A stretch of DNA of 32,000 nucleotides, from contig NZ_CP047960.1 of the NCBI RefSeq assembly GCF_014280195.1, positions 1,260,001-1,292,000 on the forward strand. The letters run 5' to 3'. Under the pieces are notes generated by a model. It was not told the origin of the DNA, made no database searches, and saw only the letters and a program-made list of their open reading frames with translations. The translations under genes were made by a program, and so were the position numbers. Below, piece by piece: positions 807 to 20,254 of this stretch (the first letter of the stretch is position 1; the number at the start of each line of letters is the position of its first letter). This DNA comes from Synechococcus sp. A15-24 (GTDB taxonomy: Bacteria > Cyanobacteriota > Cyanobacteriia > PCC-6307 > Cyanobiaceae).

Positions 807-829
807 CAACAACCCCAACTCTCCCTTCG

Positions 830-2020
830 ATGTCATCCCCAACGGACCCCAACGGGGCCTTTCAGCGTTCGCATCCCAGCGAAGGCATGCAGGCGCTCGA
901 GAAGGAACGCAAGTTGCCCCTCACCGGCTGGCAACAGGAAGTTGATCAGGCCAAGCGCCTGGGTCTCGAAGCTGCGGAAAGCATCGTTGACCGCAACATC
1001 TCCACCTTTTCGCGAGGTGAGCTCCCGCATTTCGCCGGCATCAACACCTTCATGAAGGCTCCCTACCTGGAGGATGTGAACCAGGTGGGCAATTACGACG
1101 TGGCCATCGTCGGAGTCCCCCACGATTGCGGAACCACCTACCGCCCCGGCACCCGCTTCGGGCCCCAGGGCATCCGTCGCATCTCAGCCCTTTACACCCC
1201 CTACAACTACGAAATGGGGGTTGATCTGCGCGAACAGATCACCCTCTGCGATGTCGGCGACATCTTCACCATTCCGGCCAACAACGAGAAAAGCTTCGAT
1301 CAGATCTCCAAGGGCATCGCCCACGTGTTCGCCAGCGGCGCCTTCCCGATCATTCTCGGCGGCGACCACTCCATCGGCTTCCCAACCGTCCGCGGCGTCT
1401 GCCGCTATCTGGGTGACAAGAAAGTGGGCATCATCCACTTCGACCGTCACGTCGACACCCAGGAGATCGACCTGGACGAGCGGATGCACACCTGTCCGTG
1501 GTTCCACGCCACCAACATGGCCAACGCTCCGGCCGAGAACCTGGTGCAGCTCGGCATCGGCGGCTGGCAGGTGCCGCGCGAAGGCGTGAAGGTCTGCCGC
1601 GAACGTGGCACCAACGTGCTCACCGTCACGGACATCACCGAGATGGGTCTGGAGGCGGCATCCAAATACGCCATCGAACGCGCCACCGACGGCACCGACT
1701 GCGTTTACATCTCCTTTGACATCGACTGCATCGATGCCGGCTTCGTGCCGGGCACCGGCTGGCCCGAACCCGGCGGCCTGCTGCCGCGCGAGGCGCTCAA
1801 GCTGCTGGAACTGATCGTGCGCAATGTTCCGGTGTGCGGTCTCGAAATCGTGGAGGTTTCGCCGCCATATGACATCAGCGACATGACCTCGCTGATGGCC
1901 ACCCGCGTGATCTGCGACGCCATGGCCCATCTCGTGGTCAGCGGCCAGCTCCCCCGCAAGGGCAAGCCGGCCTGGATCAGCGATGTCTGCAACATGAACG
2001 TCGATCAGAAGTGGAGGTAG
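830..2020 (+). CDS. gdmH: Arginase/agmatinase-fold ureohydrolase, probable Ni-dependent guanidine hydrolase (GdmH-like)
   Basis: Ureohydrolase motifs are present: GGDHSIGFP, HFDRHVD (DxHxD) and SFDIDCIDAGF. The start is reassigned to the ATG at 830 (MSSPTDPNG) because track positions 623-829 are occupied by the riboswitch. The gene lies directly downstream of a guanidine-I riboswitch and directly upstream of hypA/hypB, matching the Synechocystis sll1077-1079 arrangement. Confidence 0.8.
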   Translation: MSSPTDPNGAFQRSHPSEGMQALEKERKLPLTGWQQEVDQAKRLGLEAAESIVDRNISTFSRGELPHFAGINTFMKAPYLEDVNQVGNYDVAIVGVPHDCGTTYRPGTRFGPQGIRRISALYTPYNYEMGVDLREQITLCDVGDIFTIPANNEKSFDQISKGIAHVFASGAFPIILGGDHSIGFPTVRGVCRYLGDKKVGIIHFDRHVDTQEIDLDERMHTCPWFHATNMANAPAENLVQLGIGGWQVPREGVKVCRERGTNVLTVTDITEMGLEAASKYAIERATDGTDCVYISFDIDCIDAGFVPGTGWPEPGGLLPREALKLLELIVRNVPVCGLEIVEVSPPYDISDMTSLMATRVICDAMAHLVVSGQLPRKGKPAWISDVCNMNVDQKWR

Positions 2021-2023
2021 GCC

Positions 2024-2422
2024 ATGCATGAAGTCGACATGACCAAGTGCCTGCTGATCTCCCTCAATGAATGGCGGCGGGATCGGGACGATCCCTCAGC
2101 AATGGTGGATACTGTGCACCTCGATGTGGGCCGCTTCACCTGCGTTGAGCCCGATCAGCTGGTGACGACCTACAACGCCGCGGTGCAGGGCACCTGGCTC
2201 GATGGTTCCCGGCTCACCATCACCGACATTTCCTTCGTCGGTCGCTGTCTGGCCTGCAACAGCACCTATGACCCTGTGCCGGAGAGCGCCTACCGCTCCC
2301 CCTGCTGCGATCACCCACTTGAGGAGATCGTCAGCGGCCGGGAACTGCGGATCCGCAACATCGATTACCGCAGTGCTGCCGGCGCTGCCCTTGAGTCCGG
2401 CTCCATCCAGCGCATGCGCTGA
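2024..2422 (+). CDS. hypA: HypA-type nickel metallochaperone, accessory to the hydrolase
   Basis: It has the N-terminal MHE nickel-binding signature and a CLAC pair. Fifteen residues later comes an atypical CC(DH) in place of a second CxxC. The start is 3 nt after the gdmH-like stop. Confidence 0.8.
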   Translation: MHEVDMTKCLLISLNEWRRDRDDPSAMVDTVHLDVGRFTCVEPDQLVTTYNAAVQGTWLDGSRLTITDISFVGRCLACNSTYDPVPESAYRSPCCDHPLEEIVSGRELRIRNIDYRSAAGAALESGSIQRMR

Positions 2423-2446
2423 CAACCCAAATACCTCCATTTAGCC

Positions 2447-3181
2447 ATGCACATGCCCCTTGAGGACACCCTCGGTCTCAACCTCCTCGCCGCCAACCAG
2501 CACCAGGCGGAGCACAACCACGAGCATTTCCAGGCCTGGAACGTGCTCTGCCTCAACCTAATGAGCAGCCCCGGTGCCGGCAAGACCGCCCTGCTCGAAC
2601 GCTCCCTGCCGGCGTTGGCCGCCAATCACAAGATGGCGGTGCTGGAGGGCGACATGACCACCCAGCTCGATGCCGAGCGTCTGGAAGCCGTCGGCATTCC
2701 AGTGGTGCCGATCACCACCGGTCGGGCCTGTCATCTCGATGCCGCCATGGTGAGCGGCGGACTCACTTTGCTGAAGCAACGCCTGGATCCAACCCAGCTC
2801 GATCTGCTTCTGGTGGAGAACGTCGGCAACCTTGTTTGCCCCGCTGAATTCGATGTGGGGGAACACCACAAGGTGGCTCTGCTCAGCGTCACCGAGGGCG
2901 ACGACAAACCGCTCAAGTACCCGCTGATGTTCCGCCAGGCGGATGTGGTGCTGATCACCAAGGTGGATCTGCTGCCCCACCTGCAGGTGGAGCTGGCGGC
3001 GATCCGCCGCAACATCCTCAGCATCAACCCCAACGCCACGGTGATCGAGGTCTCCGCCCTCAGCGGCGAAGGCCTAGATGTCTGGCACCAGTGGGTGCGG
3101 CAGGCCCTTGCCGATCGCACCGCCGTCTCCTCTGCTGCAGCCAGGGCTGCAGACCAGTCCCCCGCTCTGGCCACCGCCTGA
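2447..3181 (+). CDS. hypB: HypB-type nickel-binding GTPase
   Basis: It has a His-rich N-terminus (HQAEHNHEH), a P-loop SSPGAGKT, and [10 protein letters not shown] and TKVDLL motifs typical of HypB/UreG-class G3E GTPases. Confidence 0.9.
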
Positions 3182-3217
3182 GCCCCGATCCCGTCATCCA
3201 CCCATCACGCCGATGCC

Positions 3218-4219
3218 ATGACCAAGCAACTCCGCAATCTCCTGATCGCCGGCCTGGCGATCGTTCTGGCCGTCGCCTGTTCCAAGCCCTCAACCCCAAC
3301 TGTGGGCGGCACCCCGATCGTTCTCGGCTACAGCAACTGGGCCGGTTGGTGGCCCTGGGCCATCGCCGTTGAAGAGAAGCTGTTCGAAAAGAATGGCGTG
3401 AATGTAGAGATGAAGTGGTTCGACGGCTACGTGCAGTCGATGGAAACCTTCGCCGCCGGCAAGATCGACGGCAATTCCCAGACCCTGAACGACACCATCT
3501 CCTTCCTGCCAGGCGAGAACGGTGGTGAAGTTGTTGTGCTGGTGAACGACAACTCCGCCGGCAACGACCAGATCATTGCTGACGCCTCGATCACCTCCAT
3601 CGCAGAGCTCAAGGGCAAGACGGTGGCCGTTGAAGAGGGCGTCGTAGACGATTACTTGCTCAGCCTTGCTCTCAAGGACGTTGGCCTCAGCCGTGAGGAT
3701 GTGGTGATCAAAGGCCTGCCCACCGACCAGGCCGCCACAGCCTTTGCCGCCGGGCAGGTGGATGCCGTCGGCGCCTTCCCGCCATACACCGGCACCGCCA
3801 TGCAGCGCGAGGGTGCCCGGGTGATCGCCAGCTCCAAGGAGTACCCCGGTGCCATTCCCGATCTGCTCACCGTGAGCGGTGATCTGATCAAGGAACGGCC
3901 CGACGACGTTCAGAAGATCGTCAAGACCTGGTGGGACGTGCGCGACTTCATGGAGAAGAACCCCGAGAAATCAGAGGCAATCATGGCCAAGCGGGCCGGC
4001 ATTCCCACAGAGGAGTACGAGCAGTACAAGGACGGCACCCGTTTCTTTTCGATCGACGAGAACCTGGAAGCCTTCAGCGAAGGCGAAGGCATGCAGTACA
4101 TGCCCTTCGCCTCGGAATCGATGGCGAAATTCATGATCTCCGTTGGCTTCATTCCCGAGAAGCCGGACATGAGCAACCTGTTTGATTCCAGCTTCATCAA
4201 GAAGGTCGCCGAATCCTGA
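3218..4219 (+). CDS. ABC transporter substrate-binding lipoprotein, NitT/TauT (NMT1/SsuA-like) family
   Basis: It has a signal peptide with a lipobox (LAVAC). The overall composition is NMT1/SsuA-like, and the gene is followed by a matching permease and ATPase. Confidence 0.85.
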   Translation: MTKQLRNLLIAGLAIVLAVACSKPSTPTVGGTPIVLGYSNWAGWWPWAIAVEEKLFEKNGVNVEMKWFDGYVQSMETFAAGKIDGNSQTLNDTISFLPGENGGEVVVLVNDNSAGNDQIIADASITSIAELKGKTVAVEEGVVDDYLLSLALKDVGLSREDVVIKGLPTDQAATAFAAGQVDAVGAFPPYTGTAMQREGARVIASSKEYPGAIPDLLTVSGDLIKERPDDVQKIVKTWWDVRDFMEKNPEKSEAIMAKRAGIPTEEYEQYKDGTRFFSIDENLEAFSEGEGMQYMPFASESMAKFMISVGFIPEKPDMSNLFDSSFIKKVAES

Positions 4220-5046
4220 TGACTGCCACGGCCGCCGCTGCATCCAAGGGGAGGGGCTCAGGGCTCCTCTCTCTGCTCACCCTGGGGGCCACCCCATCGG
4301 GGGCCGTGCGTGGCGGCCTGCAGGTCGCCTCCCTGCTGATCCCACTTTTGGCCTGGGCGGCCATCGCCTCCCTGGGCCTGGTAGATGAGAAGTTCCTGCC
4401 ATCACCGGGGGCGGTGTTCCGCTCCCTGGCTTCGATGGCCGAAAGCGGCATCCTGTTCCAGGACATCGTCGCCAGCACCGGTCGGGTGTTCGCTGGCTTT
4501 CTGCTCGCCACCGTTCTGGCGGTTCCGATCGGCATCTGCATGGGGGTGTACCCAGCGGTGTGCGCCATGTGCGAACCCCTGATCGCCATGCTCCGCTACA
4601 TGCCGGCAGCAGCGTTCATCCCCCTGCTGATCATCTACCTCGGCATCGGCGAGGAACCCAAGATCGCCCTGATCTTTCTCGGCACGATCTACTTCAACAT
4701 CCTGATGGTGATGGATGCGGTGAAGTTTGTTCCCAAGGAACTGATCGAAACCACCCTCACCCTCGGCGGCCGCAGCCGCCAGGTGCTGGTGCAGGTGGTG
4801 GCCCGTTACAGCCTGCCCAGCATCCTCGACACCCTGCGCATCAACATCGCCACCTCCTGGAACCTGGTGGTGGTGGCCGAACTGGTGGCGGCCGAAGTGG
4901 GTCTGGGCAAACGGATTCAGCTGGCCCAGCGCTTCTTCCGCACCGATCAGATCTTCGCCGAACTTATCGTGCTGGGGTTGATCGGCTTCGCCATCGACAT
5001 GGGCTTCCGTCTGCTGCTGCGCCTCAGCTGCCGCTGGGCGGTCTGA
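4219..5046 (+). CDS. ABC transporter permease, NitT/TauT family
   Basis: The protein is polytopic and hydrophobic. Its ATG overlaps the upstream TGA by 1 nt (TGATG). It carries an EAA-like loop region. Confidence 0.85.
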   Translation: MTATAAAASKGRGSGLLSLLTLGATPSGAVRGGLQVASLLIPLLAWAAIASLGLVDEKFLPSPGAVFRSLASMAESGILFQDIVASTGRVFAGFLLATVLAVPIGICMGVYPAVCAMCEPLIAMLRYMPAAAFIPLLIIYLGIGEEPKIALIFLGTIYFNILMVMDAVKFVPKELIETTLTLGGRSRQVLVQVVARYSLPSILDTLRINIATSWNLVVVAELVAAEVGLGKRIQLAQRFFRTDQIFAELIVLGLIGFAIDMGFRLLLRLSCRWAV

Positions 5047-5049
5047 ACC

Positions 5050-5805
5050 ATGGAACTGCTGGTTCAGAACCTCTGCAAACAGTTCGGCGACAAAGCCGTT
5101 CTCGAGGACATCAACTTCTCGATGCAATCCGGTGAATTCATCACCTTAGTCGGCAGTTCCGGCTGCGGCAAGAGCACCCTGCTCCGGCTGATCGCCGGCC
5201 TGGATCACCCCAGCGGGGGCCGGATCCACGTCGATGGATCCCCCGTTGAAGGGCCCGGCCCCGACCGGGGCATGGTGTTTCAGAAATACAGCCTCTACCC
5301 CTGGCTGACTGCCGCCGACAACGTCGCCTTCGGCATGCGGCTACAGGGCATGACGTCGGCTGACGTGCGTAATCGCACCGCCTATTTCCTCGAGGTGGTG
5401 GGTCTGCAGGATGCAGCCACCAAACTGCCGAGGGAACTCTCCGGCGGCATGCAGCAACGGGTGGCTATCGCCCGCGCCCTGGCCACCAACCCCAGCGTGC
5501 TGCTGCTGGATGAACCCTTCGGTGCTTTGGACCTGCAGATCCGCGAAACAATGCAGGAGTTTCTGCTCCAGCTTTGGCAACGCACCGGCCTGACAGTGCT
5601 GCTGATCACCCACGACGTGGAGGAAGCCCTGGTGCTGGCTCAACGCGTGCACGTACTGGCACCGAACCCGGGCCGGATCATCCGCTCGCTCGAGGTGACC
5701 CTGAACAAAAGCGATTTAGATCAGCTGCGCCTCAGCGCTGAGTTCCTGCAGCTGCGCCGCAGTCTGGCCACCAGCCTGCGGCAGCTGGAACCAACCATCG
5801 GGTGA
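5050..5805 (+). CDS. ABC transporter ATP-binding protein
   Basis: Walker A is GSSGCGKST, the signature is LSGGMQQR, Walker B is LLLDEPF, and the H-loop is ITHD. Confidence 0.9.
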   Translation: MELLVQNLCKQFGDKAVLEDINFSMQSGEFITLVGSSGCGKSTLLRLIAGLDHPSGGRIHVDGSPVEGPGPDRGMVFQKYSLYPWLTAADNVAFGMRLQGMTSADVRNRTAYFLEVVGLQDAATKLPRELSGGMQQRVAIARALATNPSVLLLDEPFGALDLQIRETMQEFLLQLWQRTGLTVLLITHDVEEALVLAQRVHVLAPNPGRIIRSLEVTLNKSDLDQLRLSAEFLQLRRSLATSLRQLEPTIG

Positions 5806-6857
5806 TGACGGCTCCGCAACGGTTTCTGCCGGCCCAGGCCTATACCGATCCGGAGTTGTATCGCTGGGACTGCAGCGGTTACGCCCAGCGCTACTGGCAT
5901 CCCCTGGTCGCTGGATCGGCCCTGCCGGCCGGCCACAGCCTGGCTCTAACCCTGCTGAATCAGCCCCTTCTGCTCACCCGAGCCGAGGACGGACTCCCCC
6001 GCGCCTTTCTCAACCGCTGCCCCCACCGCGGCGTGGCCTTCCAGCACGAACGCGATGGAGCAACCGCCTGCCGTCGCCTGATCTGCCCGTACCACGGCTG
6101 GACCTACAGCCTGGTAGGGGAGCTGCTGGCCGCGGCGCGCGAGCAGGGCTTCGATCACCCCTTCCATCGCCAGGACTGGCCGCTCCCTTCCCTGCCTTGC
6201 CGCGAGGATGGCCCCTTGATCTGGGTCGCACTCACCCAGGCGGTGACGCCCCTGGAGCAGCAGCTCGACCTGGTGCATCAACGGGTGGCGGACCTCTGGA
6301 CCCAGCCCCTGGATCAGGTGCGGATCCTGCAGCGCACCCTGTACTGCAACTGGAAGATCGCCCACGACAACACCCTGGACGACTACCACGTCGCCGTGGC
6401 CCATCCAACGACTCTGCACCGCGAACAGGGGCCGGTGCGCGATTACGCCCACCACACCACAGCCCTGGTGAACCTGCTGGTGACCCCCCACGCCGATGGC
6501 GGTTGCTTTCACACCTTTGGCCTGCCGCCCTGGCTACATCTGATCACCTGGCCGGACGGCCGTCTGGCGTTGTTGGAGTTTCTGCCCCTCAGCCTCGACA
6601 GCTGCTGCATGCAGTTGCGGCTGTTCGCTCCCAACGCAGCCAGCGGCGAACCGCCGACGGATGCGGCCAACAAAGCCTGGTTGAAAGAGCTGCTGGCCTT
6701 TTTGGAAGAGGACCAGACCCTGGTCGAATCCGCTCAGCGCGGCTACCGCAGTGGACTCGTGCCCGGTCCACCCCACGGGCTCGAGCAACGGATCATCCAT
6801 TGGCAGGAGATCTACCGACAGGTGCTGCCCAAAGCGCTGGCCCAATCGCTCAGCTGA
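5805..6857 (+). CDS. Rieske [2Fe-2S] non-heme iron oxygenase, alpha-subunit type
   Basis: The Rieske motif is CPHRG-x16-CPYHGW. The mononuclear iron motif is DDYHVAVAH. The ATG at 5805 overlaps the ATPase stop (TGATG); the track's GTG start is at 5802. Confidence 0.85.
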   Translation: MTAPQRFLPAQAYTDPELYRWDCSGYAQRYWHPLVAGSALPAGHSLALTLLNQPLLLTRAEDGLPRAFLNRCPHRGVAFQHERDGATACRRLICPYHGWTYSLVGELLAAAREQGFDHPFHRQDWPLPSLPCREDGPLIWVALTQAVTPLEQQLDLVHQRVADLWTQPLDQVRILQRTLYCNWKIAHDNTLDDYHVAVAHPTTLHREQGPVRDYAHHTTALVNLLVTPHADGGCFHTFGLPPWLHLITWPDGRLALLEFLPLSLDSCCMQLRLFAPNAASGEPPTDAANKAWLKELLAFLEEDQTLVESAQRGYRSGLVPGPPHGLEQRIIHWQEIYRQVLPKALAQSLS

Positions 6858-6894: not shown

Positions 6895-7635
6895 TCATAC
6901 CGGAATCGGTGAGCGCAGCTCAGCATGCAGCGCATCCCAGAAACGCTTGCGATCCGCAATCACCTGGCGCTTCACCTGCTCCACCCGTTGCATCGCCTTG
7001 GCGTCCTCCCCCACTAGGGCCAGCACCATTGCCTCGGCCAACGGGCCATGGCTGTCGCCATCGAGGGCGATGTGGCGTTCGAGGTACCAGCACAACGTTG
7101 GACAGGGCAACGCCAGGGCCTGCAGTCGCTTCAGCAGCGCACGGAACAGATCCGGCACCAACAGCTCCCGGCCGTAGGCAAACGCCGCAGCCAGGACATG
7201 GCTCTCACCGTCCTGAATCAGCACCTGCGTGGTGGTGAGAAAACGGGCTGCAGCGGGCGGGATCCGCGGGTGTTGCACAGCGCTGCCAAGATCACCGGCC
7301 ATCGCCTGCTGCAGCACCGCGTCGATGGCCGAGGTATCGGCACCGATCTCCACCATCGCACGGCGGTAGATGCCGAAATGGGACAGATGCAACGGGCCAC
7401 CGAGGGCCTCAGGCAGACAATCACACTCCTCCTCAGCCACCAGGCTGTTGATCAACCCGGCGCTGCGCGGATGCTGGGGCGGCACCCAGGGAACACCGGA
7501 TGGTGCCAGGTGCTGCTGCAGCGCCTTGAGCAACAACATGAAGTCCCACACCGCAAACACGTGGTGTTCAACGAACACCCGAAGATCTGCGATCGAAACA
7601 ATCGCCTCCGGCAAGGGATGGCGCTGGAGATCCAT
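6895..7635 (-). CDS. DUF3050-like protein (heme-oxygenase-like helical fold family), last gene of the - strand operon
   Basis: 246-aa ORF beginning MDLQRHPLPEAI...VFVEHHVFAVWDFMLLLKAL, which I recognise as DUF3050-like. Its start is 2 nt after the upstream stop. Confidence 0.65.
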   Translation of the reverse strand: MDLQRHPLPEAIVSIADLRVFVEHHVFAVWDFMLLLKALQQHLAPSGVPWVPPQHPRSAGLINSLVAEEECDCLPEALGGPLHLSHFGIYRRAMVEIGADTSAIDAVLQQAMAGDLGSAVQHPRIPPAAARFLTTTQVLIQDGESHVLAAAFAYGRELLVPDLFRALLKRLQALALPCPTLCWYLERHIALDGDSHGPLAEAMVLALVGEDAKAMQRVEQVKRQVIADRKRFWDALHAELRSPIPV

Positions 7636-7637
7636 CG

Positions 7638-8105
7638 TCAGAGGCCCAGTTCCGTCAGACCCGGGAAATCATCGGGTCTTGGGCCATCACCCCAGGTGAA
7701 CAGGAGATCGCCCTCCGCGATCGGCACGTCGTTGATGCTGGCCTCACGCCGGCGCATCAACCCGTTCTCGGCAAATTCCCAGTTCTCGTTGCCATGGGCG
7801 CGAAACCACTGCCCCTCGGAGTCATGCCACTCATATTGGAAACGCACAGCGATGCGGTTACCGGAATACGCCCACACTTCTTTGATCAATTTGTAGTCCA
7901 GTTCCTTCGCCCACTTGCGTTGCAAAAAAGCGAGAATCTCAGCCCGGCCGTGGATGAATTCACTGCGATTACGCCAGAAACTGTCCTCCGTATAGGCCAA
8001 TGAAACCTTGTCTGGATCCTTGCTGTTCCATGCATTTTCGGCCATCCGTGCCTTCTGCTGCGCGGTTTCGAGGGTGAACGGTGGAAAGGGAGGTTTTCCG
8101 GTCAT
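7638..8105 (-). CDS. DUF1348-like / NTF2 (SnoaL-like) fold protein
   Basis: The sequence [21 protein letters not shown]...[11 protein letters not shown]...[42 protein letters not shown] matches the DUF1348 pattern as I remember it. Confidence 0.7.
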
Positions 8106-8150
8106 GGCAACAACAAATTGGGGAAAAGAAAGAGGGGATGCATCATAGGG

Positions 8151-8477
8151 TCAGGGCAACTGGCTGATCACCCGCACGTTCTGATCGGGCTCGTAGCGGG
8201 CAATCCACAGGCGCAGCTGGGATTCCTCTTCATCCGTGCGGGTGCAGGCAAATCCATAGCGGGCACGAACCCGTTCGGAGGCGGCCCGCAGTGCCCTGAC
8301 ACCCAACGATTCCAGTTCCGACACCCGAAATGAATCTCCGGGTTTCAGATACTCAAGAATCACAGTTGATGGTGAATACAACGTGCTGGATTGGCCATCC
8401 GGCCATTCCAACTGAAAGCGAACCTCAGGCATCCATCCGTACACATTTGGTGGATCCTGCAACAGGCCATTCGGCAT
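8151..8477 (-). CDS. Small Nit1C-cluster protein (MSMEG_0570-like)
   Basis: The start is reassigned to the internal ATG at 8477 (MPNGLLQDPP...), which leaves a 7-nt gap after the upstream gene instead of a 92-nt overlap. The assignment rests on its position in the cluster. Confidence 0.6.
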   Translation of the reverse strand: MPNGLLQDPPNVYGWMPEVRFQLEWPDGQSSTLYSPSTVILEYLKPGDSFRVSELESLGVRALRAASERVRARYGFACTRTDEEESQLRLWIARYEPDQNVRVISQLP

Positions 8478-8484
8478 CGCTGTC

Positions 8485-9462
8485 TCATCCGCCACAGCCG
8501 AATCCGGTGAGTCCGCTCGCCCCCTCCCAGAGGCAATCCAACGCCCCGGAGCGCTGCAGCAGCACCCGGCATTCACCGGTGCTGAAGCGACCGATCCGAC
8601 AGCAGATCAGGTCCGGATCGCCCTGCAGCATCCGCACCAGGGTTGGAGTCCGGGACGGATCCACGGCCAGCAAGTAGCCGAAGCTCGGGAAACAGCTGAG
8701 CCAGGCCTGTTCCTCCACCCCATCAGGGCGGTCCACCGCATCCAGATCGATGCTGAGCTCCAAGCCACACGCTTCGGCAAACATCACCGACGTTCCCGTC
8801 AGTCCACCCATGCTGATGTCCTTGGCAGCGCGCACCAGGCCCTCAGCCGCCAGTGCCGGCAGCAGGCCCAGATGGGAGCGCAGTCGAGCTGGGGTGGCAT
8901 GGGTGGCCGCATCCCAGAAGGGGTAATGGCGGTAGAAGGCTCCGCTTTTGTTCACGAGCATCCACAGTTCGTCGCCGGGTGCTGCAACCCGGGCGGAGAG
9001 CACCGGCCCCTCTGCCACCCCAAGAACGGCAACCGACAAGGCTGTGTAGGGACTCTGCAGATTGGAATGCCCCCCCACCATCGGCACTCCGAAGCGCTCA
9101 CAGGCGAATCGCATACCCTCCAGCAGAGGCTGCAACGCATCGGCACCACCACTCCAGACACTGTTGACCAACGCCAGCGGTCGACCGCCCATCGCCGCGA
9201 TGTCGCTCAGATTCACCAGCACACCGCTCCAGCCGGCAAACCACGGGTCCTCCTCCACCAGCCCAGGATGCATGCCCTCACAGGCCAGCAACAGCTGGCC
9301 GTTCTCGCGAGGCAGCAGAGCGGCATCATCCCCCAGCATCCCCGCTGCACCAAGCTGTGGGAAAGGCTGGTGGCAAAACATCCCGGCCGCTGGCTGAATG
9401 TCGCGTTTGGCCAGAAGACCGCTGTGCAGCCGCAGCCCATCCATCAGCTCGGCAAAGCTCAT
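8485..9462 (-). CDS. AIR synthase-related (PurM/ThiL/HypE-fold) protein of the Nit1C cluster
   Basis: It shows the PurM-superfamily pattern (GDDAALL, ...NLSDIAAMGG...). The ATG at 9462 forms an ATGA overlap with the GNAT stop. Confidence 0.8.
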   Translation of the reverse strand: MSFAELMDGLRLHSGLLAKRDIQPAAGMFCHQPFPQLGAAGMLGDDAALLPRENGQLLLACEGMHPGLVEEDPWFAGWSGVLVNLSDIAAMGGRPLALVNSVWSGGADALQPLLEGMRFACERFGVPMVGGHSNLQSPYTALSVAVLGVAEGPVLSARVAAPGDELWMLVNKSGAFYRHYPFWDAATHATPARLRSHLGLLPALAAEGLVRAAKDISMGGLTGTSVMFAEACGLELSIDLDAVDRPDGVEEQAWLSCFPSFGYLLAVDPSRTPTLVRMLQGDPDLICCRIGRFSTGECRVLLQRSGALDCLWEGASGLTGFGCGG

Positions 9463-10160
9463 GCGGCAAGGGATGGCAGGAGCGAACATGACGGCCGCCG
9501 CTCCCGCGACGGCGCGTAGTACTTGAGATCGGCCTGCATCAGGTGATGCCGGATGCCACGGATCTCGAGTTCCTCAATCGAGGCCCAATTCAGACGGCGA
9601 AAGAAACGCACGTTCTGAATCTGCACCGTGGCCATGAAACGATCACAGCCCCAGCCGTTGGCGGTGGTGACCGCCTTCCAGATCAACCCCTTGCCGATCT
9701 GGTTGTGACGGCGAAAGTCGCTGTGCACCCCGAGCCGTCCGCCATACCAGAGCCGTGGTTCGGTCTCCACGATCCGAACCACACCCACCACCTGCGCCTC
9801 CGGACCGTCCTCCTTCAGACCGTTTTCCTCCCGGCGCTCCTGCTCCAGCTCGGGGTCGCATCCGTGATGCAGGGCCGCGATCGGACAGGCGATGCGGTCG
9901 AGTTCATCCCGATCGGACTGTTCGAACACGTGCTGCTCCTCGCAGAAGATGCTGCGCCGCAACGACCAGTAACCCGCGATCAGGGGCGAATCGGGACGCA
10001 GCAGGTGAAAGCTGAACCGATCCGAACTGGCGGTGGGCGACAGGCGGAAATCATCGGCGTCGATGCCGATGCCAGCCCGCACCGAAGGGGTGAACAGGCT
10101 TGGGGCGGAGCTGATGCTGCGGCCGATGCCACGGCTGCTGGGATCGAGACAGAACACCAT
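9459..10160 (-). CDS. GNAT-family N-acetyltransferase of the Nit1C cluster
   Basis: It has a GNAT acetyl-CoA loop (RRHNQIGKGL) and beta-bulge region. The ATG at 10160 lies 2 nt after the radical SAM stop. Confidence 0.8.
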   Translation of the reverse strand: MVFCLDPSSRGIGRSISSAPSLFTPSVRAGIGIDADDFRLSPTASSDRFSFHLLRPDSPLIAGYWSLRRSIFCEEQHVFEQSDRDELDRIACPIAALHHGCDPELEQERREENGLKEDGPEAQVVGVVRIVETEPRLWYGGRLGVHSDFRRHNQIGKGLIWKAVTTANGWGCDRFMATVQIQNVRFFRRLNWASIEELEIRGIRHHLMQADLKYYAPSRERRPSCSLLPSLAA

Positions 10161-10162
10161 GG

Positions 10163-11254
10163 TCAGGCCGCCTGCTCGAACAGCGACAGCGCCGAACAGG
10201 CTCCACATTTGGCGCAACCGGCCGACATCGCCTCGGAGCGCAGATCTCCTTGGTGCAGCAGCTCGGCAACCCCCTTGTAGACGTCGACCATGAAGGCTGT
10301 GTCCGGTGCCGGATGGTGCTCCAAGGGTGTGCCGGAGATCGGCACAAACGGAACCACAAACGGGTAGACCCCCAGTTCGATCAGGCGGCGGCTGCAGTCG
10401 AGCAGTGCCTCCCGGCTGTCGCCCAGGCCGGCTAGCAGATAGGTGGACACCTCTCCCCGCCCGAACACGGCGACAGCATCGGCGAAGGCCGCGTAGTAAC
10501 GCTCGAGGCTGAGCTCCGATTTGCCCGGAAGGATGCGACGCCGCACCTCCGGCTCCACCACCTCGAGGTGCATGCCGAGGCTGTCGATTCCCGCAGCCTT
10601 CATCCGCTCGTACCAGATCGGATCATCGGGGGGTTCGCACTGCCCCTGGATCGGCAGATCGACCCGACGCTTCACCGCCGCGGCCGTCTCGGCCATCAGC
10701 CGGGCGCCGCGGTCATCGCTGTTGGGGGTGCCGGTGGTCATCACCAGCTGCTTCACACCATCCAGGCACACCGCAGCTTCCGCAACCTCGGCCACCTGCT
10801 CCGGGGTCTTGCGGATCACCGTGGCGCCGTCCTCAAGGGTCTGCTCGATGGCGCAGAACTGGCAGGACTGGGAGCGATCTCGGAAGCGGATGCAGGTCTG
10901 CAACAGCGTGGTGGCCAGCACATCTCGGCTGTGCAGCAAGGCGATGGAGCGGTAGGGGATCCCCTCCGCCGTTCTCAGGCCATAGAAGGCCGGTTCATCG
11001 GTGGTGGTCACCACCGGCAGGGCGTCCTGCTGAGGACCGGTCAGGGTCAAGCCGTCACCACGTGCCGCCAGGCTGTACGCCGATGAGCCGGAGACGTCGT
11101 TGTAAACGGGCACCATCACCGTGGTGCCATCCACATTCAGGGCCCTGTGGTCAGAGGGTCCAGCCCCGCCGCGACGGCCCCGGTTTCCCTCCAGTGGTTC
11201 GGCCCGAACCCCCTTCACCTGCAGTTCGGTCACCAGGCGTCCGAGCTCAGACAT
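10163..11254 (-). CDS. Radical SAM-family protein of the Nit1C cluster (MSMEG_0568-like)
   Basis: It has a cysteine cluster C121-x9-C131-x2-C134 ([18 protein letters not shown]) and TIM-barrel-like downstream motifs. It overlaps the nitrilase stop by 8 nt. Confidence 0.75.
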
Positions 11255-12263
11255 GGTTGATCTCCTCGATCACATGGGACATCCCGGCGGCCAATGACCT
11301 TTCGGCCATCGACGTTTCGGATGGAACCGGATCGCTCGCCATCTCCTGCATCGCTACGGCCGCGTTGCGATTGATCCGCAGCGACAACAGTTCCGGACGG
11401 CTGTAATGGCCGACGCTGTCCATCATTCGCTTGCGCTTGGTGATCAGGGCCAGATCGAGTTCGGCGATGGCCAGGCCTTCACCGTCGGGCAAGGGACCCG
11501 CCAGGTAGCGGCCCTCAGGACTGATCACAGCGGTGTGACAGCCCCCTTGAAACGCCTTGTGCAACGACGCATCTGGCGTGATCGCCGCATGGTCATCCGG
11601 ATCCAGCCATCCGGTGGAGCAGATCACGAAACAGCCGGCCTCCAGGGCGTGATGCCGCATGGTGACGGCGGTCTGCTCGCTGAAGATCGGCCCGACCAGC
11701 GACCCGGGGAACTGGGCGCAGTGGATCTCCTCGCCCTGGACCATCAACGCGTAGCGCGCCAGGGGGTTGTAGTGCTCCCAGCAGGCCAACGCCCCGACCC
11801 GACCAAGCGGGGTGGACACCACCGACAGGCCGGAACCGTCCCCCTGCCCCCACACCATCCGCTCGTGATAAGTGGGAGTGATCTTGCGGCGCTTGAGAGC
11901 GATCTCGCCGCAACTATTTAACAGCAACTGGGTGTTGTAGAGCGTGCCACCGTCCCGTTCGTTCACCCCCAGCAACACCTGCATGCCGTGCTGCCGTGCG
12001 GCCGCTGCCACCGCATCCGTGACCGGTCCGGGCACCACCACAGCCTGGTCATAGAGCGCCAGGTGGGAGCGCCCCATGCGAACCGGGGGCTCAACAAATG
12101 AGAAGTAGGGGTAATAGGGCAGGAACGTCTCCGGAAAGACGATCAGCTCAACGCCTTCGGCCGCCGCTTCGGCCATCGCGTCGAGCACCTTCTGAAGAGA
12201 TCCATCCAGGCTGAACAGCACGGGACGGATCTGGGCAGCGGCAACTTTGACAGTGGTCACCAT
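11247..12263 (-). CDS. Nitrilase (branch-1 nitrilase, Nit1C/Nit6803 type)
   Basis: The Glu-Lys-Cys triad contexts are VFPETF, RRKITPT and LACWEH. Length is 338 aa. Confidence 0.9.
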
Positions 12264-12283
12264 GAAATAGGTACGACGACGAC

Positions 12284-12766
12284 TCAGAGCGTCCAGGTGT
12301 CGAGGATGAAGGCCCCTTCCTTGCGATGCATCAGCACGATGTCGAGCACATCAAGGGGATTCACCGGGGTGATGCCCGGCATCAGCGCCTTCTCGCTGTG
12401 TCCGTAAAGCGCCTGCAGAGCGAAGCGACAGGCGTACACCTTTCCCCCCTGATCCATGAACTTCTGTAGCCGTGCGTTGAAGTTCAGGTGACCATCAAAG
12501 GCGGCATCACCGAGCTTGGGGAATCCACGCATCACACCGAGGGTGACGCCAGGGCCATAGAGCAGAACAGAGGTTTCAAACCCTTTGGTAATCAGACGGC
12601 TGGCCTGCAAAAGATTAACCAGGCCAATAGAACCTTCGAAAGCAACGGTGTGAAACGTGACCAAGGCCTTTTCACCCGGCTCAGCCTTCACATCGGGAAA
12701 GACTTTTTCCTCGTAGTCAACAAGATAATCCCCCGGCTGGTTGGCGGGACGATCGACGACAGGCAT
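12284..12766 (-). CDS. DsrE-like small protein, first gene of the Nit1C cluster (MSMEG_0572-like)
   Basis: The start is set to the ATG at 12766 ([10 protein letters not shown]...), giving 160 aa. The assignment rests on its position immediately upstream of the nitrilase and on a DsrE-like alternating pattern. Confidence 0.65.
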
Positions 12767-12897
12767 GTGAAGAAACCATAAGCACCCTAAGATTGGCTCC
12801 GGTCGGCCCACAAAAAATGTACGAAATACGACCAAATTCGAGACTGAATCAAACTGGCTGACAGCGGGAGCGCAATCAAATTCGGTGGCCTTCGCTA

Positions 12898-12947
12898 CAA
12901 CACAAGTGTTAATTTCAAGAAAAATAGAAATCTTGAGTCTTGTGTTG
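12898..12947. promoter_or_regulatory. Nested A/T-rich palindrome in the divergent promoter region (candidate operator or 5'-UTR hairpin)
   Basis: CAACACAAG (12898-12906) pairs with CTTGTGTTG (12939-12947). Inside it, TCAAGA (12915-12920) pairs with TCTTGA (12931-12936). The palindrome ends 4 nt before the flavoprotein ATG. Confidence 0.5.
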
Positions 12948-12951
12948 ATTG

Positions 12952-14262
12952 ATGCTGAATAGCGCGCATGATGGCGCCCGATTCAAGGCCGATCATGCGG
13001 TTGTGGTGATCGGAGCCGGTCAGGCCGGACTTTCGGTGGCCTACCAGTTGCAACAAAGGGGCATCCGTCCTGTGGTGCTGGAAAAGCACCGCATCGGATA
13101 CGCCTGGGATCAGCAACGCTGGGATTCTTTCTGCCTGGTCACCCCCAACTGGCAATGCCGCTTGCCGGACTTCCCCTACGACGGCAACCAGCCCGAGGGG
13201 TTCATGCCCAAGGCAGAGATCGTGGCGTACCTGCAACGCTTCGCGCGGCACGTGGGTGGAGATGTGCGCGAGGGGGTCGCCGTTCAACGGCTAACCCCGA
13301 AAGGCAGTGGTTATCGGCTAAGCACCAGCGAAGGCGAGATGGAGGCCGAACATGTGGTGGTGGCCACCGGCGGGTATCACGCCCCCCGGCGCCATCCCCT
13401 GGCCGAACGGCTGCCGGCCTCCGTGCTCCAACTCGATGCCCGTGCTTACCGCAACCCGGCGGCTCTACCGGAAGGCCCCGTATTGGTGGTGGGCAACGGC
13501 CAGTCCGGCAGCCAGATCGCGGAGGACCTGCACCTGTCCGGCCGCACCGTGCACCTCAGTGTGGGCAGCGCCCCTCGATCCCCACGGGTGTACCGCGGCC
13601 GGGATGTGGTCGATTGGCTGGACCGGATGGGCTACTACGACATGCCGATCAGCGACCATGCCGACCCCCGCAGCGTCCGCGCCAAAACCAACCACTTCCT
13701 CACCGGTCGCGATGGTGGCCGTGAGATCGATCTGCGCCAGCGCGCCACCGAGGGCATGCGTCTGCATGGCCGTCTCGCAACCATCGCCACTGACCACATC
13801 GGCTTTGCCGATGATCTCGCCGGCAACCTCGATCAGGCCGATGCGGTTTATTGCCGCATCCGCAGCAGCATCGACAGCTGGATCCAGCAGCAGGGCATCG
13901 AGGCCCCCCTCGAGCCCCCCTATTCACCCTGCTGGCAACCATCAGCGATGGCCGACCCCGGCATCGATCTCAGCCGGGATCCACTCGCTGCGGTGATCTG
14001 GTGCACCGGGTACCGCAGCGACTTCAGCTGGATCGATGCTCCGGTGTTCGATGGTGCCGGTCTGCCGGCCCATGAGCGTGGGGTCACCCAGAGCGCGGGG
14101 CTCTACTTCCTTGGCCTGCCCTGGCTGCACACCTGGGGATCCGGTCGCTTCTGCGGCGTCAGCGACGATGCCGACTACCTCGCGAGGCTGATCAGTCTGC
14201 GGCTGCAACGCCGCGATGCCAGCCAGGAGCGGCTGGAGTGCACCGCGATCCTGGGCTCCTGA
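12952..14262 (+). CDS. FAD/NAD(P)-binding flavin-dependent oxidoreductase (MSMEG_0569-like), divergent from the Nit1C operon
   Basis: It has two dinucleotide-binding motifs, [12 protein letters not shown] and [12 protein letters not shown], a layout resembling class-B flavoprotein monooxygenases. ATG is at 12952; the track's TTG is at 12949. Confidence 0.85.
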
Positions 14263-14269
14263 ACTGCTC

Positions 14270-15193
14270 TCAACGCATGGAGTTGTGCAGGGCGGTGCGG
14301 AGCCAGGAGGCCATCTGTGTGTTGAGAGTGTCGACATCAGCCACCGGTTCAGCACTGAAGGGCTTCAGTGGTATGTAGCCATCAGGGCCGAATTCAGGTG
14401 TAATAGTGGCCGGCGCCTTTTCCTGATCAAACGATTCCAGAAAGAATTGCCAACAAGAGCGATGAGCCTCCAATGCTTCGGTCCACTCCGGCGCAAAGGG
14501 ATGGCTGACTGAGGGGCCCTGGGCATGACCGACCCGTGCATGGATGTGGTCGACCCGCCCTGCCATGGCCTGCACCGGTAGGAGATCAGGCGTCATCAAC
14601 CGCTCGGCAACACAACACCAATGGCTCAGGTCTGCCGTGAGCCGCATCCGTGGATGTCGCTCCAGCCACACCGGCATCTGCCAGGGGTTAGCCAGGCTCC
14701 GGCTGCGATGGGTCTCCAGCATCACGGCGCAGGGCACGGTATCGATGCGGTCGAGAACAGCCCTGAAAAAACGATGTTGAACGTCCTCAGACCAGCTGTC
14801 ACTGCCAATGATCAGATTGATCTTGAGCGGTTCCATGGCCATCGCACGACTCAGCAACGCCTCAAGTTGTTCGAGATGCTGTTCAGGACCATCGGCCAGA
14901 TTTGGGGTGTAGCCGCCCCCAGTAGTGATCTCGAGGATCAGCGCCTGCCTTCTCTTACCGAGGAGCTGCCGAACCTCCGCTGCATCAATCCGCTCCAGAC
15001 ACGAATGAACCACATTGCATTCGAGACCATCAAATCCGTGAGTTGAAGCACGGCTGGAAGCTGACTCGAGAGAACCATTCCAGCCCCAGAGAGATTGCAG
15101 CAAAAGCACCACGTCAGTGCTCGTCTGTGAACAAGTGCGGCTGGATACCGAGGTAAATGGCCTCGCGGAACAGGACTCGTTTCGCCTTGGCAT
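14270..15193 (-). CDS. Xylose-isomerase-like TIM-barrel protein (sugar phosphate isomerase/epimerase family)
   Basis: The 307-aa ORF has strong third-position GC bias and an HIHARVGHAQGP-type motif region. The true start may lie downstream of 15193. Confidence 0.6.
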   Translation of the reverse strand: MPRRNESCSARPFTSVSSRTCSQTSTDVVLLLQSLWGWNGSLESASSRASTHGFDGLECNVVHSCLERIDAAEVRQLLGKRRQALILEITTGGGYTPNLADGPEQHLEQLEALLSRAMAMEPLKINLIIGSDSWSEDVQHRFFRAVLDRIDTVPCAVMLETHRSRSLANPWQMPVWLERHPRMRLTADLSHWCCVAERLMTPDLLPVQAMAGRVDHIHARVGHAQGPSVSHPFAPEWTEALEAHRSCWQFFLESFDQEKAPATITPEFGPDGYIPLKPFSAEPVADVDTLNTQMASWLRTALHNSMR

Positions 15194-18212: not shown

Positions 18213-18309
18213 GCCAATCAACTCCGGGTAAGTAACAACACCTACAGCCCGGACAGGTTCACTCAGTAACACTGTGAACACCCCGGTGAGGGGTATGCGT
18301 CGATTGACG

Positions 18310-18336: not shown

Positions 18337-18386
18337 GTGACTGAAATCAGCGCTATGGATTGAACGCAATCAGGCGCCTCGGCCCG

Positions 18387-19865
18387 ATGATCGACCTCCC
18401 CCCCATCTGCGGCCGTGAATCTGAGCTGATGCAACTGATGCAGCAGCAACCACCGATCTGGAGGCACCACAGCAATCTCGATCTCAGCCGCATCCGCTCC
18501 GGCTTCGCCTGCGCGCTGCACATGCATCAACCCACGGTGCCTGCCGGAGCGAAAGATGCCCTGATCTCCCATCTGCAATACATGGTTGAGCATCCGGGAG
18601 AAGGCGATAACCACAACGCCGAACCGTTTGCTCAGTGCTACCGCCGCATGGCGGATCTGATCCCGGATCTGATCCGCCGAGGCTGCAACCCGCGGATCAT
18701 GCTCGATTACTCGGGGAACCTGCTCTGGGGTGTCGGGCAGATGGGCCGTGAGGACATCACCGGAGCCCTGCGATACCTCGCCTGCGATTCAGAGATGCAG
18801 CGACATGTGGAGTGGCTTGGCACGTTCTGGAGCCATGCCGTTGCTCCATCCACACCGATTCCTGATCTGAAGCTGCAGATTATGGCCTGGCAACACCAGT
18901 TCGCAGCGATGTTCGGTGATGCCGCTCTGCAACGCGTCAGGGGATTTTCTCCACCGGAGATGCATCTCCCCAACCATCCGGACACGCTGTTTCAGTTCAT
19001 CCTTGCCCTGAAGCAATGCGGCTACCGCTGGCTGCTGGTGCAGGAGCACAGCGTCGAAACCCTGGACGGAACTCCGCTGGCACAGGAGCAGAAACACCTC
19101 CCAAACCGCCTGATGGCCCGCAACAGTTGCGGGGAAACCATCAGCATCACGGCGCTGATCAAGACCCAGGGTTCGGACACCAAACTCGTCGGCCAGATGC
19201 AACCCTGCTACGAAGCGATGGGGTTGCGACCCACGACGTTGGCGGGGCGAGAAATACCACCGGTGGTCAGCCAGATCGCCGATGGCGAAAACGGTGGCGT
19301 GATGATGAACGAGTTTCCAGCTGCCTACTGCCAGGCCAACGAACGGATCCGTGACGACAGCAATGGAACCGTGGCGATCAACGGCTCGGAATACCTGGAG
19401 CTGCTTGAGGCCGCAGGCATCTCCGAAGACGAATGTCCTGCCATTCAGGCGGTTCAGCAACAGCGGCTGTGGAATGCCGTCGGCGCAACCCTCAACCGCC
19501 AGACCGTGGAGGAGGCGATCGATCGGCTGGCAACAGCCGGTGATGGTTTCTCGATGGAAGGAGCCTCATGGACCAGCAACCTCAGCTGGGTGGCTGGGTA
19601 CGAGAACGTGCTGGAGCCGATGAACGAGCTGAGTGCGCGCTTCCATCAGCGATTCGACGCCGCGGTGAACAGCGAGCTCAGCCTGACGGGCACATCCAGC
19701 TATCGGGACGCTCTCCTGCACCTCCTGCTGTTGGAGACCAGCTGCTTTCGCTACTGGGGACAGGGCACCTGGACCGACTACGCCAGAACGCTGTATCGAC
19801 GGGGGGACGCTTTGTTGCAGCAGATGCCAATCAATGGCCCGGACACAGCAGACGCCCTTGGATGA
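18387..19865 (+). CDS. Glycoside hydrolase family 57-like protein
   Basis: GH57 signature regions are present: LHMHQP, GFSPPEMHLP (nucleophile Glu context) and IADGENGG (acid/base Asp context). The ATG at 18387 is preferred over the track's TTG at 18360. Confidence 0.8.
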   Translation: MIDLPPICGRESELMQLMQQQPPIWRHHSNLDLSRIRSGFACALHMHQPTVPAGAKDALISHLQYMVEHPGEGDNHNAEPFAQCYRRMADLIPDLIRRGCNPRIMLDYSGNLLWGVGQMGREDITGALRYLACDSEMQRHVEWLGTFWSHAVAPSTPIPDLKLQIMAWQHQFAAMFGDAALQRVRGFSPPEMHLPNHPDTLFQFILALKQCGYRWLLVQEHSVETLDGTPLAQEQKHLPNRLMARNSCGETISITALIKTQGSDTKLVGQMQPCYEAMGLRPTTLAGREIPPVVSQIADGENGGVMMNEFPAAYCQANERIRDDSNGTVAINGSEYLELLEAAGISEDECPAIQAVQQQRLWNAVGATLNRQTVEEAIDRLATAGDGFSMEGASWTSNLSWVAGYENVLEPMNELSARFHQRFDAAVNSELSLTGTSSYRDALLHLLLLETSCFRYWGQGTWTDYARTLYRRGDALLQQMPINGPDTADALG

Positions 19866-19886: not shown

Positions 19887-20060
19887 ATGGCCTACGAACC
19901 GGGCACAGCCGAATGCCGTGTGCTGATCCGCAGCAAGGAACAGATCGAAACCTTGCTGTTGGAGCTCAGCAAACTGGACGGCACGGATGAGCTGCTGCAG
20001 CAACTCCGGCAGGTGCACAGCCAACTCGAAGCTCTGCACGATCTGAGAAGAGCCTCCTGA
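19887..20060 (+). CDS. 57-aa helical hypothetical protein (MAYEPGTAECRVLIRSKEQIETLLLELSKLDGTDELLQQLRQVHSQLEALHDLRRAS)
   Basis: Hand translation. It has better codon bias than the antisense track ORF 19881..20084. Confidence 0.4.
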   Translation: MAYEPGTAECRVLIRSKEQIETLLLELSKLDGTDELLQQLRQVHSQLEALHDLRRAS

Positions 20061-20127
20061 CCAATCCTGAGAAGGAACGTTCACATCCCGTTACAAGCGT
20101 GTAGATTGCTGCAAAAGAGGTTGACCT

Positions 20128-20250
20128 ATGGGCGACTACTCGACCGCAATCGTCGCCACTCTCGTGGTGACTGTCGTCTTGACGGGTGCCGTTGTGTTCG
20201 CCTTGATGCAGCCTTCTGATCTACCTGTCAGCAAGCGCGAGAAGGAGTGA
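20128..20250 (+). CDS. 40-aa single-TM peptide (MGDYSTAIVATLVVTVVLTGAVVFALMQPSDLPVSKREKE)
   Basis: Hand translation. An AAGAGG Shine-Dalgarno-like sequence sits 8 nt upstream of the ATG. Confidence 0.4.
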   Translation: MGDYSTAIVATLVVTVVLTGAVVFALMQPSDLPVSKREKE

Positions 20251-20254
20251 TTCC

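Follow-up and report, generated by a model that had tools for sequence, protein, structure and literature searches.

A stretch of 32,000 nucleotides from the marine cyanobacterium Synechococcus sp. A15-24 (contig NZ_CP047960.1, positions 1,260,001 to 1,292,000; hereafter the window, numbered from its first letter) carries at 6895-14262 a group of nine genes that, judged by their sequences, is close to certain to be a Nit1C system. It is a known cluster in a modestly variant form, consisting of the seven-gene Nit1C and two extra genes, which encode a DUF1348 protein and a HamA-like oxygenase and travel along with the cluster in some lineages. As to function, the reading we favour, and hold to be probable on balance, is that the picocyanobacterial Nit1C is a nitrogen-starvation operon in which NtcA drives a route of nitrogen scavenging that ends in the hydrolysis of a nitrile by the nitrilase NitC. 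The original prediction for this DNA, made from its letters and open reading frames (ORFs), had described an extended Nit1C-type cluster and the best candidate in the window for undescribed biochemistry; the extended form proves to be real, but the novelty was overrated, since the cluster was defined in 2005 and has been catalogued in picocyanobacteria.

Two observations together carry the identification. The NCBIfam models TIGR04042-04049 are specific to Nit1C, or MSMEG_0565-0572, and have curated cut-offs (TIGR04047 being the model for the glycosyltransferase), and all seven core proteins exceed the cut-off of their own model: NitB scores 270 bits with TIGR04044 (cut-off 110), NitC 570.7 with TIGR04048 (502.6), NitD 569 with TIGR04043 (304), NitE 208 with TIGR04045 (68), NitF 421.6 with TIGR04049 (321), NitG 112 with TIGR04042 (80), and NitH 644.9 with TIGR04046 (498). 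Gene order, moreover, is conserved across a comparison set of 80 Nit1C loci, which were fetched with up to 10 kb on either side of nitC and surveyed by tblastn. Because seven curated models are passed and the order is kept in 80 loci, the cluster is therefore assigned to Nit1C; the Pfam superfamily assignments of its proteins agree with the NCBIfam calls. The proposed family membership was thus borne out by hidden Markov model searches for seven of seven proteins, as was the more particular statement that the first six genes of the run reproduce the conserved nitrilase-centred cluster, since their models are passed and their order recurs in the 80 loci. The colinear, minimally spaced B-C-D-E-F-G genes and the divergent nitH match the layout of other picocyanobacterial loci, and its nitrilase shares 82-85% identity with marine Synechococcus nitrilases and ~70% with those of Prochlorococcus.

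Nit1C was defined with a Synechococcus among the taxa listed (Podar et al. 2005), and in marine picocyanobacteria it is the named unit nitHBCDEFG, or Syn-eCAG_002, which is enriched in warm, iron-replete, low-nitrogen waters (Dore et al. 2023). Even the two extra genes have been drawn before: a figure for Ca. Regnicoccus frigidus MAG-AL1 places ntf2 and DUF3050 in the nine-gene layout, without comment (Panwar et al. 2022, Fig. 8). In a 2024 review NitB and NitG are entered as unknown and NitD-H have generic annotations only, and a 2021 enzymology paper describes the physiological role of a NitC homologue as unclear and the function of the cluster as obscure. Literature searches to mid-2026 in the searchable library, made with the cluster name, locus tags and enzyme combinations, found no published complete Nit1C pathway, and the view that the chemistry of the cluster is still unresolved holds to that extent. 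The papers also agree with the links drawn in the original prediction, to cyanide utilisation by pseudomonads and to the nitrogen-starvation responses of mycobacteria and Synechocystis.

The ORF map resolves the locus into eight head-to-tail, tightly packed, co-directional ORFs on the minus strand, running from 12766 down to 6895, and a ninth ORF, nitH, which diverges from nitB on the plus strand and extends from 12952 (or from a TTG at 12949) to 14262. On the minus strand nitB (12766-12284) is followed after a 20-nt gap by nitC (12263-11247), which overlaps nitD (11254-10163) by 8 nt; nitE (10160-9459) comes after a 2-nt gap, its ATG at 10160 lying 2 nt past the nitD stop, and shares a 4-nt ATGA overlap with nitF (9462-8485). 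Then come nitG (8432-8151, or 108 aa from an in-frame upstream ATG at 8477), the DUF1348 gene (8105-7638) after a 45-nt gap, and, after another 2 nt, the DUF3050 or HamA-like gene (7635-6895), the last of the run. The spacer between nitF and nitG measures 7 nt if nitG starts at 8477 and 52 nt if it starts at 8432. Most NitG homologues are 92-93 aa long with the N-terminus MPEV, and locus L086 has a stop codon immediately upstream of the corresponding methionine; because of these homologue lengths and starts and of the L086 stop, the true start is probably the ATG at 8432, giving a protein of ~93 aa and a gap of 52 nt rather than 7. All of the gaps and overlaps given in the original prediction were reproduced with the starts they imply, and only its 7-nt nitF-nitG junction is probably in need of correction. 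A 226-aa gene call in L086 that looked like a NitG-DUF1348 fusion was discarded, the two genes being in different frames and nitG having its own stop. A terminator scan found no intrinsic-terminator-like site at any gene junction of 6895-12766; the sole minus-strand match is a weak 5-bp stem at 7614-7602, within the DUF3050 gene, and the matches total two against a shuffle expectation of 5.1. A scan for sigma-70 promoters, which is uninformative for cyanobacteria, returned zero matches.

Of the two added proteins, the product of the DUF3050 gene is the more informative, being by sequence a HamA-family heme-oxygenase-like non-heme iron/2-oxoglutarate oxygenase. It matches PF11251 (now Pfam HamA_HO-like) at 244.1 bits, against a gathering cut-off of 22.2, and the HamA structure 9VWB with E 2e-48 and 40% identity over 233 residues. 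HamA residues H40, E84, H96, R167, H199 and R240, which are named as iron ligands and/or 2-oxoglutarate-binding residues (PMC12522199), correspond to H25, E69, H86, R156, H188 and R229 of the window protein, and all six are kept in it and in 12 further picocyanobacterial homologues (13 in total). The same paper names Glu184 as an iron ligand (PMC12522199); residue 184 of 9VWB_A, as aligned, is Ile, the conserved acidic neighbours in that chain are Glu168 and Glu185, of which Glu185 is not kept in the picocyanobacterial homologues, and Glu168 (window E157) may be the residue meant. HamA of Burkholderia cenocepacia, whose structure dates from 2025, acts in fragin/valdiazen diazeniumdiolate biosynthesis, where it oxygenates N-hydroxy-valine tethered to the nonribosomal peptide synthetase (NRPS)-like HamD, after N-oxygenation by HamC (PMC12522199). 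The window protein differs in having Ser in place of HamA Glu206, and the 32 kb hold no ORF of NRPS size, the longest stretch without a stop being 529 aa, and no HamC-type partner that we could find; with no NRPS in the window, the substrate of the HamA-like protein must therefore differ from that of HamA. DtpC of Acinetobacter was considered as a further DUF3050 relative and left unused, its paper describing a general HDO-fold without mention of DUF3050. The neighbouring DUF1348 protein is NTF2/SnoaL-like, scoring 218 bits with PF07080 and matching PDB entry 2imj with E 1e-66, a structural-genomics entry without assigned function.

The extension recurs in recognizable forms. Within the fetched flanks a DUF1348 gene is found in 17 of the 80 loci, in both cyanobacteria and betaproteobacteria; in six picocyanobacterial loci (L001, L002, L007, L015, L017 and L027) it is the next gene after nitG, in two (L052 and L060) it separates nitC from nitD, and in one (L071) it comes immediately behind nitH. 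The DUF3050 gene is present in five loci, each time right behind DUF1348, and L083-L086 carry the whole nine-gene block in quite different surroundings. In four loci a cyanase gene (cynS, above the TIGR00673 cut-off) lies immediately beside DUF1348 and next to Nit1C, in a Synechococcus, two Rhodoferax metagenome-assembled genomes (MAGs) and a Leptolyngbya MAG; the regions concerned are 14420-15433 in L027, 6753-7749 in L034, 1535-2531 in L047 and 15192-16250 in L049. The claim of an extended cluster stands, and the extra genes move with Nit1C, but their presence is patchy even among close relatives.

Among the core enzymes, NitC is by sequence a branch-1 nitrilase of the Nit6803 family: it matches the Nit6803 crystal structure 3WUY with E 4e-144, and the catalytic triad Glu44/Lys126/Cys161 is kept in an alignment of 81 sequences. 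Its orthologues Nit6803 and Nit11764 prefer conjugated nitriles in vitro, such as fumaronitrile, cinnamonitrile and 3-cyanopyridine. NitD is assigned to the radical S-adenosylmethionine (SAM) enzymes as a variant-motif member because it matches PF04055 and scores 172 bits with the variant_rSAM model NF045502 (cut-off 125). Its motif is CX9CX2C (Cys121/131/134), not the canonical CX3CX2C, and four extra cysteines, Cys206 and a C-terminal CX2CX2C (Cys347/350/353), are conserved as well, all seven being kept in 72 orthologues; the four extra residues suggest a second, auxiliary Fe-S cluster. NitD also matches the LipS2 model, far below that family's cut-off, and a PDB sequence search returned no solved relative. 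NitE belongs to the MSMEG_0567/Sll0786 family of GNAT acyltransferases and matches Acetyltransf_1 in Pfam, while NitF is an AIR-synthase-like, ATP-dependent enzyme of the sll0787 family and the PurM superfamily, with AIRS and AIRS_C domains and with ThiL, SelD and PurL as its nearest solved relatives.

NitB, a 160-aa member of the MSMEG_0572/Sll0783 family, combines a predicted DsrE/YchN fold with unusual constraint. The homologues number 2765, those listed from ~88% identity downward are nearly all 160 aa long, and identity is ~80% across phyla, as between marine Synechococcus and Tistrella or Polyangiaceae; Cys113 is invariant, as are four histidines. Between cyanobacteria and proteobacteria, identity is 76-82% for NitB (homologues P0001-P0120), ~68% for NitC and ~35-40% for NitG, making NitB the most conserved protein of the cluster. 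PDB sequence searches found no relatives of NitB or NitG. An AlphaFold2 model of NitB, with a predicted local distance difference test (pLDDT) score of 68, has 11 Foldseek matches in the PDB at E < 1e-3, which comprise DsrE/DsrF/YchN/TusBCD folds and one designed protein cage (8uja). The model superposes on 3mc3, 2hy5, 1jx7 and 2d1p with template-modelling scores of up to 0.8 on the target. This predicted structure supports a DsrE/YchN fold for NitB, in line with its placement in a YchN-like fold in 2005 (Podar et al. 2005). The earlier description of NitB as DsrE-like is accordingly upheld at the level of fold and not at that of sequence, where Pfam DsrE (PF02635) scores 16.3 bits against a cut-off of 22.7; any likeness to the DsrE/TusD sulfur relay rests on the predicted fold. 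NitB further differs from DsrE, TusD and YchN in a ~32-residue N-terminal extension and in lacking DsrF/H or TusB/C partners. Cys113 sits after, or at the end of, strand 3 in the model and is a possible counterpart of DsrE/TusD Cys78.

For NitG, whose AlphaFold2 model has a pLDDT of 88, a fold search of the PDB found no relative (best E 0.14), and an exhaustive profile search places the family among the rare ones, with 325 cluster representatives among 1.84 billion. NitG occurs at the N-terminus of NitH in P0420 (full-length, 536 aa), P0416, P0468 and P0481, and at the C-terminus of NitF in P0477 and P0503; several of the NitG fusion sequences are contig-end fragments, in which read-through artefacts are possible. 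Because NitG-NitH fusion proteins exist, NitG probably works physically with NitH, and we regard it as a likely partner of this flavoprotein. NitH itself is an FAD- and NAD(P)H-dependent flavoprotein of the MSMEG_0569 family with two conserved GxGxxG motifs. TIGR04046, Pfam and its nearest solved relatives, the class B flavin monooxygenases 4a9w/4c5o, agree with its description as flavin monooxygenase-like, and NitH also matches the model for the bacillithiol-disulfide reductase YpdA, far below the family cut-off.

The divergent spacer between nitH and nitB, 185 bp in length, contains two NtcA-like boxes of the form GT-N10-AC: GTAGCGAAGGCCAC (12885-12898, in minus-strand reading), 54 nt upstream of the nitH ATG, and GTCGTATTTCGTAC (12819-12832, minus strand), which starts 66 nt upstream of the nitB ATG. 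The nitB-proximal box recurs at -95 to -60 of the nitB ATG in 35 of the 44 loci with the divergent arrangement, where 0.087 would be expected per locus, and the distal, nitH-side box occurs at the equivalent place in 38 of the 44; the loci are phylogenetically related, so that such counts are not to be read as probabilities. Sequence flanking the boxes has otherwise diverged among loci, and in the non-picocyanobacterial ones both boxes are perfect GTA-N8-TAC sites. In Synechocystis, chromatin immunoprecipitation sequencing (ChIP-seq) places two NtcA peaks, which overlap, in the bidirectional promoter of sll0783. The pattern across loci is the one expected of two working NtcA sites, which in the window are putative. 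Elsewhere, the mycobacterial cluster is induced >500-fold by GlnR, and the pseudomonad one has the sigma-54 regulator NitA. Perfect NtcA consensus sites (GTA-N8-TAC) occur in the window only at 18232-18245 and 25346-25359, the former ~115 nt upstream of a 501-aa ORF (18360-19865) without a family match.

Taken together, these features can be arranged into a nitrogen-scavenging route. At low nitrogen, 2-oxoglutarate would rise and NtcA would act on both GT-N10-AC boxes, as their sequence and the Synechocystis ChIP-seq data suggest, activating nitH to one side and the eight-gene operon to the other. Nitrogen would be released when NitC hydrolyses a conjugated nitrile to carboxylate and ammonium, for which the activities of Nit6803 and Nit11764 provide the in vitro basis, and the other proteins may make or present this nitrile starting from an amine or from a C-N compound, cyanide being an example, so that free environmental nitriles would not be the starting material. 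NitH, probably with NitG as its partner subunit, and the HamA-like enzyme could carry out O2-dependent (N-)oxygenations; NitF might use ATP to activate an oxygen or to drive a dehydration, as PurM/HypE-type enzymes do, while NitE might transfer an acyl group, NitD perform a radical step using a second Fe-S cluster, and NitB serve as a cysteine-based carrier of the DsrE fold. A nitrogen-scavenging role for the cluster is likely; the assignment of single steps to the accessory enzymes is speculative. The role is favoured because P. pseudoalcaligenes mutated in nitA, nitB or nitC can no longer draw nitrogen from cyanide or nitriles, because the cluster is under nitrogen-starvation control in three phyla, and because of its ocean distribution and its neighbours, which include cyanase in other loci and, in the window, an adjoining riboswitch-controlled cluster for guanidine uptake and hydrolysis. 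Within this reading we think it somewhat probable that DUF1348 and the HamA-like protein are lineage-specific passengers that are functionally part of Nit1C.

Several observations weigh against nitrogen scavenging in this form. In purified form, NitC orthologues act poorly on cyanide and not at all on cyanohydrins, beta-cyanoalanine or simple aliphatic nitriles. Six or seven conserved enzymes far exceed the needs of nitrile hydrolysis, and the phenotypes reported in Synechocystis (polyhydroxybutyrate [PHB], NADPH) and in M. smegmatis (peroxide resistance, a higher NADPH/NADP ratio) have to do with redox state rather than with the supply of nitrogen. A pattern scan of the 185-bp spacer found no perfect GTA-N8-TAC, and the two boxes there are imperfect, reading GTC...TAC and GTA...CAC, and can only be called putative sites. 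Many close relatives, finally, lack the extension, among them Synechococcus MIT S9452, Prochlorococcus and most Cyanobium.

The redox phenotypes invite a different account, somewhat unlikely in our judgement, in which Nit1C is a biosynthetic or redox-homeostasis module that makes a small sulfur-containing or N-oxygenated metabolite under nitrogen starvation; like a low-molecular-weight thiol or redox cofactor, the product would raise NADPH/NADP and guard against peroxide, and NitC would serve in tailoring or maturation. The M. smegmatis gpr genes (MSMEG_0565-0572) are indeed both necessary and sufficient for GlnR-dependent peroxide resistance and raise NADPH/NADP, and in Synechocystis mutation of sll0783 leads to a PHB defect linked to NADPH. 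The protein likenesses point the same way: NitD resembles sulfur-inserting radical SAM enzymes through its LipS2 match and four extra conserved cysteines, NitB has the predicted DsrE sulfur-carrier fold and an invariant Cys, NitH matches the YpdA model, a GT4 glycosyltransferase related to MshA/BshA occurs in 24 of the 80 loci, and HamA-type enzymes are so far known from natural-product biosynthesis alone. Yet nitB and nitC are required, as genetics has shown in pseudomonads only, for growth with cyanide or nitriles as the sole nitrogen source, the glycosyltransferase is absent from the window and from every picocyanobacterial locus examined, the metabolite has never been reported, and the likenesses to thiol pathways are at superfamily level only, far under family cut-offs. 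A more specific version of this account, which we consider quite unlikely, holds that Nit1C is not a route for living on nitriles and makes a redox-active small metabolite when nitrogen is short. NitB and a two-cluster NitD would, equally doubtfully, insert sulfur while a NitG-NitH complex oxygenates an amine; in picocyanobacteria the 2-oxoglutarate-dependent HamA-type enzyme would oxygenate the amine again and couple the pathway to the nitrogen-status signal, a step to which we give just as little weight; and the nitrile met by NitC would be an internal intermediate in a series from amine through N-hydroxy and N,N-dihydroxy or oxime forms to nitrile, a proposal we hold no more readily than its companions.

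Two further alternatives leave the nitrile chemistry in place. If the cluster mainly detoxified cyanide or nitriles released by neighbours or by grazers' prey, nitrogen gain would be a by-product; this idea was raised as an alternative in both picocyanobacterial papers (Dore et al. 2023, Panwar et al. 2022), Podar et al. proposed the detoxification of defence compounds, and cyanide strongly induces the cluster in pseudomonads. We nevertheless find it very improbable, as nitrogen-starvation regulators in three phyla and enrichment in low-nitrogen waters fit nutrition better and NitC hardly acts on free cyanide. A narrower objection concerns only 6895-8105, where DUF1348 and the HamA-like gene might be an independent two-gene module downstream of nitG and the extension an accident of synteny. 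Such independence would accord with the 45-nt spacer ahead of the DUF1348 gene, with the absence of both genes from many Nit1C loci, close relatives included, with the L041 pair, which lies ~7 kb from nitH among unrelated genes, and with the low identity of the DUF3050 proteins at this position in L017 and L041 (35-38%). It is harder to reconcile with the 17 loci that hold DUF1348, some of them inside the operon (L052, L060) or right after nitH (L071), with the recurrence of the nine-gene block between entirely different flanks, and with a spacer that has neither promoter-like nor terminator-like sites. Across the 80 loci, neither the guanidine cluster nor any other window neighbour showed linkage to Nit1C outside the closest relatives, and no other neighbour is so linked. 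An independent module thus appears to us a minority possibility, and a nitrogen-starvation operon with the two genes as functional passengers remains the reading we prefer.

Back to back with Nit1C, 706-6857 is the published guanidine cluster Syn-eCAG_001. It opens with a guanidine-I riboswitch (706-804, plus strand; 87.6 bits against a gathering score of 63) inside a mechanically called ORF of 623-2020, and because of this position the arginase-family (guanidinase-like) gene starts after ~805. HypA, identified by synteny with L081, follows the guanidinase-like gene, and then come HypB (2447-3181), an ATP-binding cassette (ABC) transporter of the SsuA/TauABC type (3218-5805) and a Rieske/ring-hydroxylating-alpha-like oxygenase (5802-6857, plus strand), whose gene overlaps that of the ABC ATPase by 4 nt. 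The Rieske gene, a Synechococcus-specific addition to the guanidine cluster (Dore et al. 2023), encodes a protein with a weak best match to the glycine-betaine monooxygenase GbcA, and converges with the HamA-like gene across a 37-nt spacer; a structured element or terminator between the two was considered and rejected, the fold being no better than shuffles (z = -0.73). On the other side, a 307-aa ORF at 14270-15193 (minus strand) converges on nitH; searches of Pfam and NCBIfam gave it no match, even at E = 10, and none of the 80 Nit1C loci holds a counterpart. Farther away, G+C falls to 0.50 at 20001-21000, the rest of the window lying at 0.58-0.66.

For two decades Nit1C, a conserved set of seven genes, has been a puzzle: it is found in cyanobacteria, proteobacteria and actinobacteria, abundant in nitrogen-poor oceans, required for cyanide use in pseudomonads, and tied to peroxide resistance in mycobacteria and to the NADPH level in both mycobacteria and Synechocystis. 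The window adds no new system, but comparison with other loci yields experimental handles on the open chemistry of this one. The HamA-family accessory oxygenase points to N-oxygenation dependent on Fe and 2-oxoglutarate; the fusions point to a NitG-NitH partnership; DUF1348 keeps recurring as an accessory gene and is also found paired with cyanase; NitD has a probable second Fe-S cluster; and NitB combines a DsrE fold and extreme constraint with one invariant Cys. Should these handles reveal the substrate, they would explain a nitrogen-scavenging or stress route of a large share of marine Synechococcus.

Set beside Nit1C elsewhere, namely sll0783-sll0787 of Synechocystis and gpr/MSMEG_0565-0572 of M. 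smegmatis, the window cluster shares the seven core families and the B-C-D-E-F-G order; with other cyanobacterial representatives it shares the position of H at one end on the opposite strand, and with other Nit1C clusters, probably, the setting of nitrogen starvation. It departs from the core form in its two added co-directional genes, DUF1348 and HamA-like, and in what it lacks. A tblastn search of the 32-kb window gave no match to the MSMEG_0565-family glycosyltransferase (TIGR04047), which occurs in 24 of the 80 loci and defines the mycobacterial/proteobacterial form, not the cluster as such; and the dedicated regulators of other Nit1C loci, sigma-54 NitA, GAF-LuxR and MocR-like, are likewise missing. 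Unbiased clustering of the remaining ORFs in the 80 loci recovered three further groups, none of them present in the window: the GT4 glycosyltransferase MSMEG_0565 (24 loci), GAF-LuxR regulators (14 cyanobacterial loci) and MocR-like regulators (10 proteobacterial loci). The closest parallel is the locus of Ca. Regnicoccus frigidus MAG-AL1 (L017), which has the same layout of nitH, nitBCDEFG, ntf2 (DUF1348) and DUF3050; its DUF3050 protein is merely 38% identical to that of the window, and in its paper the two added genes are not counted as belonging to Nit1C; here we take them to be probably part of a patchily distributed but recurrent extended form.

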